64,000 bases of DNA from a virus: IMG/VR virus record IMGVR_UViG_3300020442_000013, positions 1 through 64,000 of that record. One strand, 5' to 3'. The notes below the pieces were generated by a model that worked only from the letters and a program-made list of their open reading frames with translations, ran no database searches and had not been told where the DNA came from. Shown one piece after another: positions 16,599 through 32,154 of the stretch. Within the stretch, counting starts at the first letter, position 1. Each line of letters opens with the position of its first letter. The translations under genes and the position numbers were made by a program.

Positions 16599-16668
16599 AA
16601 GGTTGACACCTCCTTCGGGAGGTGTTATACTATAAGAACAATAAGAGATTAACTAGAAGAGGGCTTAT

Positions 16669-17718: not shown

Positions 17719-18038
17719 AAGGACTATTAATCATTCTATTGTTTTCAGGTCAGGTTGAATTTAGAGAATTTGACTTCCAGCCCAAAGACTTTGATGGAAC
17801 AAAAGGTTTCACCGATACAGAAATTGTTCTATCATGTTCTGAAGAAGCAGAAAGACAATATGAAAAATTAGGTGCCCATAGTTGGGATGATCCTAGAGGT
17901 CAGTCTTGGTACCTATTTGATGGCACTGGAACGATACAAGGTCATATTTGCTAATTTTGGCAAATAAGAGGTTGACATTATATCTAGAAGGTGTTATAGT
18001 ATAAACATAATTAGAGCTTACATATAGGAGGGCCGCTC

Positions 18039-19639: not shown

Positions 19640-19836
19640 GGTTGACTTTTACCGATAAAGGTGCTATTATATAAAGATAATGCAGAGGGCATTCGCGTCC
19701 TGGGAACGAGATCATAGATCGGCATTCAAAACTGAGGTTTCCGAATTGATGCAGTCCACATTTTACGGGGTGGGAGTTTTCGACTATAAAAATAAAACTC
19801 CCCCAACATAAAAATAATAATAAGCTGGAGGGCAAA

Positions 19837-20970: not shown

Positions 20971-21036
20971 AGGTTGCAATTATCTCTAATAGGTGTTATT
21001 ATATAAGAGTAAGTTAAAAAACAAAAGGAGGGCAAT

Positions 21037-24578: not shown

Positions 24579-24672
24579 CCTCTTTTTCGCCAAAAAAAAA
24601 ATAAATTAGGGGTTGACTTTTGGACAAAATGAGACTACTATGTATATAACAATTAAGCAATAGGAGGGCACA

Positions 24673-24810
24673 TTGCAAAACTTACTAAACAAAATTACAC
24701 TTTGGTTTTTGAACAGAGCATACGAGCAGATGGAGGCTAGTGGCGACTTGCAGAACGCAGACGATGTGGCTGAGCATATAGAAGATTATTTTACTAATTT
24801 TGTAAAATAA
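24673..24810 (+). CDS. 45-aa immediate-early protein, TC/CC-free
   Basis: Hand-translated from TTG: MQNLLNKITLWFLNRAYEQMEASGDLQNADDVAEHIEDYFTNFVK; own promoter; GGAGGGC RBS. Confidence 0.6.
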   Translation: MQNLLNKITLWFLNRAYEQMEASGDLQNADDVAEHIEDYFTNFVK

Positions 24811-24875
24811 CGGTTGACTTTTGAGCAAAATGAGGTTATTATAATATTAACAATTAACAATAAATGAGGGCAAAT

Positions 24876-25379: not shown

Positions 25380-25459
25380 AACGGTAAAAAAAAGGTTGAC
25401 ACTATAGCATTTGTGTGCTATAGTGTTACTATAATTACAAAAGCATACGGAGGGCAACT

Positions 25460-25885
25460 ATGCAAAACACACGTTATGAACTACTAAACAAACTACAAGC
25501 TAAACTTGGGGACGCGATTACTATTTACGACGAGTATGAAGGCGAGCACAGACTGAATTTTTATAGTGTAAGCATAAACTTGGGAACAGGTTTTGCTGGG
25601 AACTACAAAGGTGGTTACTGGGGCGATTGTAATATTAAGAATGACGAGCTTAAACTTGCATTTGTATATGGGGACGTATACGATGAAGGTGAAGAGTGTT
25701 TTGGTGAGGGTACGGTACAATTAGAATATGCTGACGGTAGCGGACTTGCATACACAGGCGAGTTAGATAAACTTGTAGAGCGTAAGGTTGAAGAGCTTAC
25801 AGGCGGACTTATAACTTGTAGCGGTAGCGAACAGGGAATGCAGGGAGACGATTACTTGAGTGTAGACGTAGACGAGGCTGCATAA
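25460..25885 (+). CDS. Acidic proline-free early protein, TC/CC-free
   Basis: Own promoter; GGAGGGCAA RBS; C-terminal SEQGMQGDDY.S.DV motif. Confidence 0.75.
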   Translation: MQNTRYELLNKLQAKLGDAITIYDEYEGEHRLNFYSVSINLGTGFAGNYKGGYWGDCNIKNDELKLAFVYGDVYDEGEECFGEGTVQLEYADGSGLAYTGELDKLVERKVEELTGGLITCSGSEQGMQGDDYLSVDVDEAA

Positions 25886-25949
25886 AACGGTTGACATATT
25901 GGATGTTGTGTGCTATATTAAAGCATAATAAAAATTAAGAGGGCAATAC

Positions 25950-27647: not shown

Positions 27648-27945
27648 TTTGGTAAAAAAAAGGTTGACAATTGAATTTGTTTGTGCTATAGTATAAGCAC
27701 AATAAGAGAACGAGGGCAAAATGCAAATCATCAGATCAAAGAAATCATTGGCTACCCTAAACAACCGGAGGTTCTTCACCCCACCTACCTTGGCAGAGAT
27801 ATGCGAGAACCCAGAGTGGAAGCCGATCACCCTGCCAGACGAGCTAGACGAGCAATTTAACTTTTTTGACATTTTGGATAAAAAAAGGTTGACATCCGAA
27901 TAACGGTGTGCTATAGTATAAACATAATAAGAAAGCGAGGGCAAG

Positions 27946-28167: not shown

Positions 28168-28413
28168 GAGCACTCTGCATAGGATTGGCATTCTTCTGCG
28201 CCTTTGTAGGCGTAGGGGTGCTTGAGGATTGTGGCGGCGACTGTATTCCAGAAGACTACAATGCGGCCTGGAGATGGGTGGTCGCGATAGTGGCTGTGAT
28301 GGGTACGGCGTTCTTCGGCTTTGCCGGGGCTGTGATAAAAAGGTAAAAAAGAGGTTGACAAACGGTTTGAGAGACTGTATTATATAGGTAACAATTTAGA
28401 AAGAGAGGGCCAA

Positions 28414-28878: not shown

Positions 28879-28960
28879 TGGTTGACATTCGAGTCAACCG
28901 ATGCTATTATGTGTATAGTTAAGTTAAACAAACCAATCAGCCTAAGGAGGGCTAAACGAT

Positions 28961-29381: not shown

Positions 29382-29468
29382 GCCGCCATGGTGGAATTGG
29401 TAGACACAACAGACTTAAAATCTGTCGGCCCTCGAGCTGTCCCGGTTCGAGTCCGGGTGGCGGCACCA
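29382..29468 (+). tRNA. tRNA-Leu (anticodon TAA)
   Basis: GCCGCCA/TGGCGGC acceptor, ACAGA-CTTAAAA-TCTGT, long variable arm, GTTCGAGTC, CCA. Confidence 0.93.
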
Positions 29469-29472
29469 CTCA

Positions 29473-29549
29473 CTGCCCTTAGCTCAGCTGGACAGAGCAA
29501 CGGCCTTCTAAGCCGTGGGTCCCGGGTTCGAATCCTGGAGGGCAGGCCA
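29473..29549 (+). tRNA. tRNA-Arg (anticodon TCT)
   Basis: CTGCCCT/AGGGCAG acceptor, ACGGC-CTTCTAA-GCCGT, GTTCGAATC, CCA. Confidence 0.93.
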
Positions 29550-30104
29550 ATGCAAAAAAAGATCCCCAATGGTATCAGCCAATTACCGGTAAACAACAGA
29601 TATCGTAGGGGATCTTTTTTCTTGTGTTCCCTAGGGTAGATGCTATTATATAAACATGATAAACAACACAGGAGACGATATGCAGACAGAGACCATTCAA
29701 GAGTTTTTGGCACGTGGCGGGAAGATCACCAGGCAACCGGAGACCAGGATACCTACCTGGAGCGAAGCATACGACGAGCTGGTGAAGTTGGCCTGGCATA
29801 CTTATGTCCCTCCACAACCTGAGGTAGTAGAGGAGGCCGAGTGATAGAGCTCGTGTTCATCAGTCAGGCCATCATGCTGGTGGCCTTAATCATCTTATCT
29901 CCATAATTGGCAAAAAAGAGGTTGACATCGACCGTAGGTTGTGCTACATTATAATTGAGGACCGGGGTGCTGGAACGGGAGGGCACGGAGCTCTGACTTT
30001 TTTAAGCCCAAAAAAAAAGATGACTTTTTGGCAAAATAAAGGTTGACCTTTAGATAAACTGGTGCTATAGTATAAACATAATAAGGAAACAGAAAGAGGG
30101 CAAA

Positions 30105-30455: not shown

Positions 30456-30623
30456 AGGGATTGATCATAGGGATCACTCTCGCGGTGGCGATGTATTGGA
30501 TATTGAGTATGTTCGCCACTTCGGTAGGATTATAATAAATTAGGGGTTGACATTGAGATCAACTGAGGCTATACTATAAAGACAATAAGGCATTAATTAA
30601 CACTTCAAATGAAAGAGGGCAAT

Positions 30624-31628
30624 ATGGAAAAGATTAGAATACTCGAAGGCACGTACAAGATCAGAGGGAACGACGTGGACCTCGCAGGCATGGTGTTCCC
30701 ACTAGTGGATCACTTCAAGGTAGGCGCCAAGGGCGGCTACGTTACGGTCGATGGTGCGGCTGTAGCTGGGTTCCCACAGAGGAACATCAAGATCGCTTGT
30801 GCTGGCGCTGACTCATATGAGGACGCAGGTTCAGCAAAGACAACCAAGCGAGAGGAGACGGACGAAGAGACGATCGAACGTTTACGTGAGCGATTCGAAA
30901 TGCTCGAGGACATGACCCGAGCAACCAAGAAGGGCGATGTGCGAGCAATGATCGTAAGTGGCCCTCCAGGAGTTGGCAAGAGCTTTGGTGTAGAGAAGGT
31001 GCTTGGCAAGCATGACTTGATCGCTACACTGGGTGACAAGCCTCCCAAGTATCAGGTTGTCAAGGGTGCTATGTCAGCAATAGGCCTCTACTGTAAATTG
31101 TACAACTATGCCGACAAGGACAATGTGTTGGTCTTTGATGACTGTGATTCGGTCTTCAGTGACGAACTCAGCCTTAACATATTGAAGGCGGCTCTTGATA
31201 GTAAGAAGAGCAGAACTATCCATTGGAACACAGATTCGTTCAAGTTGAGAAACGAAGGTGTGCCGGACAGTTTCGAATTCAAGGGTGGTGCGATATTCAT
31301 CACCAACATCAAGTTCGATAACGTTAAGTCGAAGAAGATGAGAGATCACCTAGAAGCTTTAGAGTCCAGGTGTCACTACATTGACTTGACTATCGATACT
31401 GATAGAGAGAAGATGCTGCGTATCAAGCAGATCACCAAAGACGGTATGCTTGATGAGTATCAATTGGGCAACGACGTGGTTGATGAGATCGTAGAGTTCT
31501 GCGAATCCAACAAGGCACGTCTAAGAGAATTGAGTTTGAGAACCGTGCTCAAGGTTGCTGACTTAGCTAAGGCATTCCCGGACAAGTGGGAAGCAATGGC
31601 TGAGAACACAGTGATGAAGCATGCATAG
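30624..31628 (+). CDS. P-loop AAA-like ATPase
   Basis: Walker A GPPGVGKS, Walker B VLVFDDCD, ALESR arginine-finger-like motif; own promoter. Confidence 0.85.
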   Translation: MEKIRILEGTYKIRGNDVDLAGMVFPLVDHFKVGAKGGYVTVDGAAVAGFPQRNIKIACAGADSYEDAGSAKTTKREETDEETIERLRERFEMLEDMTRATKKGDVRAMIVSGPPGVGKSFGVEKVLGKHDLIATLGDKPPKYQVVKGAMSAIGLYCKLYNYADKDNVLVFDDCDSVFSDELSLNILKAALDSKKSRTIHWNTDSFKLRNEGVPDSFEFKGGAIFITNIKFDNVKSKKMRDHLEALESRCHYIDLTIDTDREKMLRIKQITKDGMLDEYQLGNDVVDEIVEFCESNKARLRELSLRTVLKVADLAKAFPDKWEAMAENTVMKHA

Positions 31629-31640
31629 TTCGAACCGAAT

Positions 31641-31740
31641 GTGCTAGAGCCCAAGACTACGTGATTGCCCTCCGTAGCTGGCTCGCACAAGGTAGGGCGG
31701 AGCAGATGCCCTTAAGACTCCGCCCTACCATCCTTTTTAT
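31641..31740 (+). ncRNA. Candidate two-hairpin antisense sRNA / terminator with anti-GAGGGCA loops
   Basis: Hairpin 1 gtgc-gagcc-ctacg[tgattgccctc]cgtag-ggctc-gcac; hairpin 2 ggtagggcggag[cagatgcccttaaga]ctccgccctacc followed by a T-run. Confidence 0.55.
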
Positions 31741-31827
31741 CCCCGCATAGATATTGGTAAAATAAAGGTTGACCTTTAGGATTTTTGACTGTATACTCTT
31801 AGTATAACAATTAGGAAAGAGGGCAAT

Positions 31828-32154
31828 ATGAAGATAGAAGTAATCCACGCAGCGTTTGAAGACCAAGCAGAGACCGTAGCCACTGTAGAGTATGTGGGCA
31901 AGATCGATGCAGGACTTGAGTATGCATACAGATGGACGCAGAACATCATGGACAGCTGGAGCATGAAGATGCCACAAGACGGCAATGATGCTGTAACTGT
32001 AGTGAAGCCCCTGCATACAGATGAAGCTGGTAAACAGTGGGGACACAGATCAACATCAGTAGGAGACTATATGCGAGTAGGCGGAGAGCTGTTCCGTGTA
32101 GCTGGCATGGGCTTTGAGAACGCTGATGCAATCCAAACACGTCAAACTATATAA
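31828..32154 (+). CDS. Early hypothetical protein (RSTSVGD motif)
   Basis: LEYAYRWTQNI..SWS, HRSTSVGD..V..MGF; own promoter. Confidence 0.7.
   Translation: MKIEVIHAAFEDQAETVATVEYVGKIDAGLEYAYRWTQNIMDSWSMKMPQDGNDAVTVVKPLHTDEAGKQWGHRSTSVGDYMRVGGELFRVAGMGFENADAIQTRQTI

Follow-up and report, generated by a model that had tools for sequence, protein, structure and literature searches.

A hairpin array behind an ATPase gene of an uncultured giant phage carries loops complementary to the phage's own early ribosome-binding tag

The window analyzed here is a stretch of 64,000 nucleotides (nt) of virus DNA, the first 64 kb of the 101-kb IMG/VR contig IMGVR_UViG_3300020442_000013 (CheckV completeness 29%), and the element under study is a pair of RNA hairpins that lies directly behind a gene encoding an AAA+ ATPase. 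Our analysis shows that the ATPase mRNA's 3' untranslated region (3' UTR) is a conserved, structured hairpin array whose loops are complementary to a tag, GAGGGC, found in the leaders of early genes, and suggests that it probably represses these tagged genes, a reading based on sequence comparison that we hold with moderate confidence. The array is a new RNA family, absent from Rfam and abundant in marine giant phages, of the kind whose loops are complementary to Shine-Dalgarno (SD) sequences (anti-SD loop RNAs). Related contigs in IMG/VR reach 357 kb, which indicates that the source is an uncultured giant phage. The 14 DNA runs that contain more than half of the window's sampled words are all marine, seawater or estuary metagenomes.

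Two stable hairpins begin 12 bases past the ATPase stop codon (TAG, 31626-31628) and are followed by a U-run (Table 1). The region folds with -50.6 kcal/mol according to RNAfold (z = -5.3), and none of 200 shuffled sequences was equally stable. The inner stem of hairpin 1 is formed by CTACG (31657-31661) and CGTAG (31673-31677), and the anti-tag AUUGCCCUCC occupies 31664-31673. The stem of hairpin 2 is formed by GGTAGGGCGGAG (31691-31702) and CTCCGCCCTACC (31718-31729), and its loop is CAGAUGCCCUUAAGA. An earlier note on this DNA had described a nested first hairpin, a second hairpin of 12 bp and a stretch of Us directly after the ATPase stop, and all three are present. It had also taken the loops to be antisense to the tag, which is exact for loop 1; loop 2 carries GCCCUU and pairs with GAGGGC only via a G-U wobble, or fully with AAGGGC. 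The ATPase start is more likely at 30624 than at 30609, since the gene has its own GAGGGCAAU tag at 30615. As to a possible intrinsic terminator, hairpin 2 has a 12-bp stem, a 15-nt loop and a run of five U that starts 4 nt past the stem, and was not listed by a consensus scan; a canonical stem plus U7-8 is present in the arrays of many relatives. A scan of the window found no terminator hairpin of the type typical of the clade (TGTGCCCTCG...T5), and the window shows instead the rarer AUUGCCCUCC loop type, in common with the related loci L002 and L044. No promoter was found by consensus scan between the ATPase stop and the array, which is part of the ATPase 3' UTR. Strong hairpins with a GCCCU loop are found at a single locus in the 101-kb contig and likewise in a complete 357-kb relative. 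Rfam searches of the window and 20 related loci returned only tRNAs at gathering score, and at E<=10 the region 31560-31830 gave only meaningless sub-threshold rows.

The tag GAGGGC is found in the 101-kb contig in 23 copies on the plus strand and six copies on the minus strand. About 15 of them belong to plus-strand genes located between 16.6 and 31.9 kb, where they precede the ATG by 3-9 nt. The longer form GAGGGCAA has 10 plus-strand copies against 1.4 expected, a number that none of 100 shuffles reached. Almost every tagged gene comes first behind a sigma70-type promoter (TTGAC-N17-TAnnnT), at a distance of 30-50 nt, and AGGAG/GGAGG leaders belong to internal genes and to the replication and structural genes on the minus strand. 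The tagged genes of five large relatives are gathered on one strand in a single block of 8-15 kb, and the array is located close to the distal end of that block. The plus strand of the 357-kb relative G001 (L083-L100) shows about 23 copies of GAGGGC and about 19 of GCCCTC, of which 13 and seven, respectively, are in the first 30 kb; the scarcity of both words outside the early block in these raw counts may reflect avoidance of off-target sites.

Loop 1 and the tagged leaders share 6-12 contiguous complementary bases. The earlier note had recognized that AUUGCCCUCC is the exact complement of GGAGGGCAAU before gene 21037, which we confirmed, and had estimated pairing of 7-9 nt with many other early leaders; 14 of the 16 scanned GAGGGC-N2-8-ATG sites (16-33 kb), two or three of which are not true leaders, match the loop over 7-12 nt, and the longest match, of 12 nt, is in the leader of gene 25460. 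When loops 1 and 2 were matched against 182 start regions, the 12 best predicted partners were all tagged genes, with energies of -15 to -22 kcal/mol versus about -10 kcal/mol for loop 1 on GGAGG leaders. The anti-SD tail gave -6 to -12 kcal/mol on the same tagged leaders, assuming the usual 16S tail, which may not be that of the host. Each tag is composed of a 4-nt SD core (GAGG or GGAG) and a lineage-specific extension that 16S rRNA cannot read, and for this reason a duplex with the loop would hide the ribosome-binding site (RBS) and should out-compete the ribosome. Two tagged leaders, at 25441-25465 and 24658-24678, place the tag in the loop of a small hairpin and the start codon in its 3' arm (gcaua-CGGAGGGCAAC-uaugc and gcaaua-GGAGGGCA-cauugc, respectively), an arrangement that would allow loop-loop kissing with the array; most other leaders do not have such a hairpin.

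Table 1. Position of the hairpin array, the tagged leaders and the associated features in the window.
Feature	Position	Strand	Basis
AAA+ ATPase gene, T4 NrdC.11-like, PHROG 1250; the array is its 3' UTR	30624..31628	+	Profile, homology and structure searches
Hairpin 1, nested stems, anti-tag in loop UGAUUGCCCUC (31662-31672)	31640..31689	+	RNAfold; compensatory changes in L002
Hairpin 2, 12-bp stem, loop with AUGCCCUU (31706-31713)	31691..31729	+	Fold, loop comparison
U-run 3' of hairpin 2, probable intrinsic terminator, 4-nt spacer	31734..31738	+	Sequence
Sigma70-type early promoter TTGACA-17-TATACT, would drive an ATPase-plus-array transcript	30547..30575	+	Consensus scan, 11/12 matches (predicted)
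Promoter of the next early gene, right boundary of the element	31769..31797	+	Consensus scan
GAGGGCAA tag, next gene, start 31828	31819..31826	+	Motif scan
GAGGGCAAU tag (RBS) of the ATPase gene, 9-nt complement of loop 1	30615..30623	+	Sequence scan
GAGGGCAA tag, gene start 30105	30096..30103	+	Motif scan
GAGGGC tag, gene start 28961	28947..28952	+	Motif scan
GAGGGC tag, gene start 28414	28405..28410	+	Motif scan
GAGGGCAA tag, gene start 27946	27937..27944	+	Motif scan
GAGGGCAA tag, gene start 27721	27712..27719	+	Motif scan
GAGGGCAA tag, gene start 25950	25939..25946	+	Motif scan
UACGGAGGGCAA leader, gene 25460; 12-nt complement of 31665-31676, longest match in the contig	25446..25457	+	Complementarity
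GAGGGCAA tag, gene start 24876	24866..24873	+	Motif scan
GAGGGC tag, possible TTG start 24673, gene call uncertain	24664..24669	+	Motif scan, duplex prediction
GGAGGGCAAU leader, gene 21037; 10-nt complement of loop 1	21027..21036	+	Complementarity
GAGGGCAA tag, gene start 19837	19828..19835	+	Motif scan
GAGGGC tag, gene start 18039	18028..18033	+	Motif scan
GAGGGC tag, gene start 16669	16659..16664	+	Motif scan

Related loci were gathered from IMG/VR by means of the ATPase protein, 80 in a first scan and 80 more in a second one. More than 60 distinct relatives show one to four hairpins with the loop motif directly behind the ATPase gene, and every relative of the main clade has hairpins right past the ATPase stop whose stem sequences are unrelated and whose loops keep GCCCUC. 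The first set contains 55 distinct arrays with one to four motif hairpins each; in it, the motif is located in a terminal hairpin loop at 109 of the 119 sites away from the stop codon, and 37 arrays show an additional unpaired copy that abuts or overlaps the stop codon. The commonest hairpin has a hexaloop UGCCCU closed by a G-C pair and a U-G wobble, and is often a terminator; other recurrent types have the loop ...AGCCCUCAC, the hairpin GGA-CCGCCCUCA-UCC or the GUGAUUGCCCUCCG of the window, which is common to L002 and L044. L002, whose ATPase shows 96% identity, retains both loops of the window with compensatory changes in the stems. The leader of the ATPase gene itself carries the tag of its clade in nearly every locus. 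An exact 16-mer of the commonest hairpin was found in 35 contigs across IMG/VR: 25 show it 40-190 nt behind the ATPase gene and on the same strand, and the remaining 10 are chance matches in GC-rich coding DNA of unrelated phages.

Among 39 hairpins of the commonest type in clade 1 (alignment A1), the inner eight pairs are paired in 84% of cases versus 58% in shuffles, and covariation is 0.68 versus 0.19, with none of 500 shuffles reaching 0.68; sliding the partner strand abolishes this signal. The U-G wobble is conserved in 35 of the 39 hairpins, and together with further G-U pairs and the U-runs downstream it indicates that the folded molecule is RNA of the plus strand. Clade 2 (L163-L175) has an array of one to three hairpins at the same place, with 87% pairing versus 55% and covariation of 0.89 versus 0.24 in shuffles (alignment A2). 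Covariation of the stems, invariance of the loops within a clade and a complementary difference in the loop where the leader motif differs (clade 2, L058 and L157), all of which the earlier note had proposed to look for, are thus found among the relatives, and so is its proposed preference for tagged leaders in the partner prediction described above.

Several observations on the arrays stand beside this general pattern. Many clade-1 arrays start with a conserved unpaired (GCCCUCA)CGCUCCGC in the first 10-25 nt past the stop (e.g., L034, L046, L013 and L060), and the first motif overlaps the stop codon in many loci, so that a terminating ribosome would cover it. Seven loci (L042-L045, L049, L065 and L019) show a hairpin type with two motifs, ACCCCUC and AGCCCUC, in one large loop. 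A divergent array in L053 (4011-4150), on a contig of only 10 kb, has the loops CCCUCCC and CUCCCU in place of GCCCUC. In L056, a gene for a Seg-like GIY-YIG homing endonuclease (PF19835, NUMOD3) is found between the ATPase stop and the array, which persists; the insert lies at 2189-2794 on the minus strand, its far side is flanked by a repeat of about 20 nt from the 3' end of the ATPase gene, and the sister locus L052 does not have it.

Tag and loop change together between lineages. Loci with an array have one to 12 GAGGGC-N-ATG leaders per 4-7 kb, at least two in all but three of them, and a clade without array has zero or one and generally weak SD sequences. On the ATPase tree, this clade is nested in the clade-1 radiation, which indicates joint loss of array and tag. 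Its members L066-L081 show leaders with little or no SD sequence (e.g., ..AGGCAAAAnATG before the ATPase gene), which suggests a host with little dependence on SD pairing and a common loss of tag and array. In clade 2, the loop is an invariant 9-nt AUUCGCUCC (complement GGAGCGAAU), the leaders read GGAGCGAA or (A)GGAGCG(A/U)A, and none of them contains GAGGGC. Leaders were also set against arrays in a matrix, in which a leader counted as matching when it was complementary to an unpaired segment of the array over 7 nt or more; the matching fraction was 0.29 (clade 1) and 0.18 (clade 2) within the own clade, versus 0.05 and 0.06 across clades.

Two further changes follow the same pattern. In L058 (contig G008, clade 1), seven of 11 leaders, that of the ATPase gene included, read GAGGGA(A), and the terminator hexaloop has changed from UGCCCU to UUCCCU (UUCCCUC), the complement of GAGGGAA. 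Over all loci, GAGGGA leaders number 8 of 24 where an UCCCUC loop exists versus 17 of 316 elsewhere; IMG/VR contains no close relative of L058 able to replicate the GAGGGA/UUCCCUC pair. In the sister pair L154 and L157 (79% nucleotide identity of the ATPase gene), nine leaders of L157 read GGAGCG and one of its loops reads AUUCGCUCCU, and L154 has six AGCGAGG leaders and no loop of the AUUCGCUCCU type; an unpaired tail ACCCUCGCUC, common to both, is complementary to AGCGAGG. Since the loops change complementarily with the leader word, for which a protein site or a mere terminator would give no reason, base pairing between loop and leader is the economical reading, and on these comparisons loops and leaders very likely base-pair.

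Six RNA runs of marine metatranscriptomes contain these phages. Metatranscriptome contigs from four studies cover the region, and in relatives RNA-library contigs extend from the 3' end of the ATPase gene into the array of the respective phage; DNA carry-over is possible in both cases. A 151-nt RNA-library contig ends at 31743, where a contig of another study begins, a weak hint at most. The metatranscriptome contigs support no joints, starts or ends, and neither their uncovered stretches nor their depth figures are informative.

On this basis, we propose that the loops, and in many relatives also the unpaired stretch at the stop codon, would pair with a phage-private extension of the SD sequence, here GAGGGC(A), which would mark the first gene behind each early promoter, the ATPase gene included. 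The most likely effect is that the duplex would cover the RBS and keep ribosomes off the early messages, possibly with cleavage of the duplex, so that repression would act on the first cistron of early transcripts; ordinary AGGAG/GGAGG messages would be much less affected. The compact hairpin RNA should outlast the mRNAs and would accumulate as a stable remnant of early mRNA, which would shut off translation of the whole early class after the end of early transcription. The early-to-late switch and the discrete small RNA of about 100 nt that the earlier note had envisaged are putative parts of this picture. In phage T4, RegB cuts the SD sequences of early mRNAs and RegA represses translation, and the array RNA would play the part of these two proteins. 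Searches for RegB (PF10715) and RegA (PF01818) gave no match in five genomes, although they were silent on controls too, so that absence is not established.

A number of observations weigh against this proposal. The array is never found apart from the ATPase gene, which need not be so for a freely trans-acting small RNA, and, like its targets and along with them, it would be transcribed from an early promoter, so that a switch would need a difference in stability or processing. Termination at the array may also be leaky, as the U-run lies 4 nt from the stem. The predicted pairing is limited to a core of 6-7 nt: bases flanking the core do not favor the own locus over other loci (7.20 versus 7.26 nt, p = 0.38), a U through which pairing could reach the commonest leader base next to the tag (the A before GAGGGC) is almost absent from the loops, and the conserved U-G wobble has no cognate in the leaders. 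Some array words have no counterpart either, as the CGCUCCGC tail of clade-1 arrays showed no association with GGAGCG leaders and no matching leaders, and the seven loci with CCCCUC loops have no GAGGGG leaders (0 of 45). Finally, the tree reduces the joint changes to about four independent events, all in the same direction but few, and the RNA-library data are assembled contigs, which are uninformative on abundance, ends, strand and depth.

The constant company of the ATPase gene fits with control in cis only, in which the 3' UTR would fold back onto the RBS of its own mRNA and tune that gene alone, the other early genes sharing the tag through copied and homogenized promoter-leader cassettes. 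We consider this a real alternative, or an additional layer, since it is compatible with action in trans, although as the sole explanation it seems rather unlikely. The array lies directly behind the ATPase gene in all 25 true occurrences of the 16-mer and was retained despite the insertion in L056, the ATPase leader is tagged in nearly every locus and in the window matches loop 1 over 9 nt, and there are precedents both for the folding back (icaR, PMC3868564) and for the cassettes (of the PeSL type in T4-like phages, PMC4122927). However, a single loop would suffice for this purpose, yet arrays show one to four motif hairpins plus the unpaired copy; the longest matches in the window are with other genes, 25460 and 21037; and the variant loop of L058 matches the majority tag of a whole gene class, to which the ATPase's own leader belongs. 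In another reading, the pairing would be real and its effect positive or protective, the loops shielding leaders from nuclease or keeping early messages in reserve. Complementarity and co-variation fit this equally, as do the co-expression of the array with its targets and the lack of RegB or RegA matches in searches that had no positive control, but a duplex over the SD core (GAGG or GGAG) blocks 30S in all characterized cases of such geometry and no second element that would free the RBS is visible, which makes a protective role improbable.

Readings in which leader complementarity is secondary or fortuitous fare worse. The loops could be a platform or decoy for a phage or host protein that reads GCCCUC-type loops, since the 10-nt module conserved in the commonest hairpin (U-G wobble, G-C closing pair and hexaloop UGCCCU) exceeds what pairing with the consensus leader needs, the flanking bases do not track the leaders, and several identical loops resemble sponges of the CsrB type. 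Such a protein would not need the loop to change complementarily with the tag, which occurred in clade 2, L058 and L157, and the genomes contain no other such hairpin for it to regulate, so that we find this highly improbable. The hairpins could also be mere terminators or 3'-end stabilizers of the ATPase mRNA, their match to the leaders being chance or a relic of inverted cassette fragments, as hairpin 2 with its U-run resembles an intrinsic terminator and terminator-promoter-leader modules are typical of T4-like early regions. This is already disfavored and barely credible: the loops are invariant while the stems turn over, a conservation not expected of terminator loops, 109 of 119 motif sites are in loops, and the loops retained differ from clade to clade, those of each clade fitting its own leaders.

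Among known systems, the c4 antisense RNA of phages P1 and P7 (immI) is transcribed together with its target, its loops pair at RBS sites, and loop and target differ matchingly between the two phages, whose specificities are therefore different. The array is similar in working principle, as its loops are complementary to RBS sites with matching differences between related phages; however, c4 lies upstream of one operon (icd-ant) in a temperate phage, while the array is in a 3' UTR, addresses about 10-20 tagged early genes and belongs to a giant phage of lytic type. The c4 covariance model (RF01695) gave no match in Rfam searches of the window, the element and 20 relatives. Together with c4, the nearest to the array in logic is the icaR mRNA of Staphylococcus aureus, whose long 3' UTR contains the motif UCCCCUG, which pairs with the SD region, blocks initiation and makes a substrate for RNase III (PMC3868564). 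It acts on its own mRNA only through a single motif, whereas the array has several loops and a target common to a gene class. The closest architecture is that of the cuckoo/CcsR (alpha-r14) small RNAs of Alphaproteobacteria, with two to four adjacent hairpins that share a C-rich, anti-SD-like loop motif on highly variable stems (PMC4615179); in comparison, the window has two hairpins and its relatives one to four motif hairpins with covarying stems. Their loop motif is CCUCCUCCC, while the array shows UUGCCCUCC and AUGCCCUU in the window, GCCCUC in clade 1 and AUUCGCUCC in clade 2, and they are free-standing genes of bacterial chromosomes, unlike a phage 3' UTR whose motif matches the phage's private early tag. 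No match to the cuckoo/CcsR Rfam models was found in the window (gathering score), in 31560-31830 (E<=10) or in 20 related loci.

Gram-positive small RNAs with C-rich loops, 6C (PMC6486639), LhrC (PMC4132741) and the RsaA/RNAIII type (PMC3961350), bind the G-rich RBSs of many mRNAs through short seeds. They show several C-rich loops or single-stranded motifs, as the array does, but are host regulators that read ordinary G-rich SD sequences, with no private SD extension, co-evolving dialects or phage context. On the side of the leaders, the start-associated sequences (SAS) of cluster K mycobacteriophages are a private 13-bp word with an SD core located 3-7 bp before many non-structural gene starts; they exceed the pairing reach of 16S rRNA, and the authors left open a phage RNA or protein as binder (PMC3203893). 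The tagged leaders resemble SAS in being a phage-private word that contains an SD core, although the partner of SAS was never identified, whereas the RNA complementary to the tag is encoded beside the tagged genes, and sequences and phage groups are unrelated. PeSL cassettes of T4-like phages consist of a stem-loop or terminator, a sigma70-type early promoter, an SD sequence and a start codon, repeated in early regions (PMC2839356, PMC4122927). The same order is seen here, where hairpin 2 precedes a promoter (31769-31797), a tag (31819) and an ATG (31828), and similar modules recur between 16.6 and 31.9 kb. Nevertheless, PeSLs are recombination or regulatory cassettes, defined by their stems and present many times per genome, while the array is a single locus; neither a conserved SD-complementary loop nor the complementarity of loop and tag is part of their definition. 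The literature searched holds no description of a phage RNA matched to the private RBS tag of an entire early gene class.

The gene upstream of the array encodes an AAA+ ATPase of 334 amino acids whose relatives are T4 NrdC.11-type proteins (PHROG 1250, function unknown). The nearest homologue from a cultured phage is that of Pseudomonas phage PA5oct, with 49% identity over 72% of the protein, and the PA5oct gene has only a plain hairpin 3' of it; near and distant nucleotide searches of the INPHARED phage collection gave no match. Searches of the ATPase against Pfam, PHROGs, NCBIfam, PDB sequences and Foldseek led to the generic AAA+ fold only (ORC/Cdc6, RuvB, RFC, Rpt and NorQ), with no RNA-specific match. 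The structural model (predicted local distance difference test, pLDDT, of 87) shows an N-terminal beta domain in residues 1-67 followed by an AAA+ module of generic type. Some GenBank phage records label their homologue 'thioredoxin', apparently a mis-annotation that stems from the name of the adjoining T4 nrdC gene. A cluster of two or three tRNA genes precedes the ATPase gene by 1-2.5 kb, in the window at 29382-29549 and also in L013, L017, L020, L029, L030, L041, L044, L046, L048, L054, L058, L060 and L062, so that the order tRNA cluster, ATPase gene and array is conserved. The 3' acceptor strand of tRNA-Arg(UCU) in the window happens to read GAGGGCA.

A more speculative extension, which we regard as doubtful, would make tag and anti-tag a translational address code, private to the phage and able to evolve, with a second use in competition between phages. 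Anti-tag RNA that has accumulated by the late stage of infection might silence the early genes of any superinfecting phage with the same dialect, like the immI immunity of P1 and P7, and such exclusion might select for divergence of dialects, i.e., GAGGGC/GCCCUC, GAGGGA/UCCCUC, GGAGCG/CGCUCC and AGCGAGG/CCUCGCU.

If the pairing acts as proposed, one short RNA would address a whole temporal class of genes through a private extension of the RBS, and these giant phages would possess a virus-written orthogonal translation code that drifts into lineage-specific dialects. It would be an RNA-only answer to the problem that T4 handles with the RegB and RegA proteins, and a concrete model for the partner of the long-unexplained start-associated sequences of other phages. 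The pairs of tag and anti-tag would also offer natural orthogonal RBS elements for synthetic biology.

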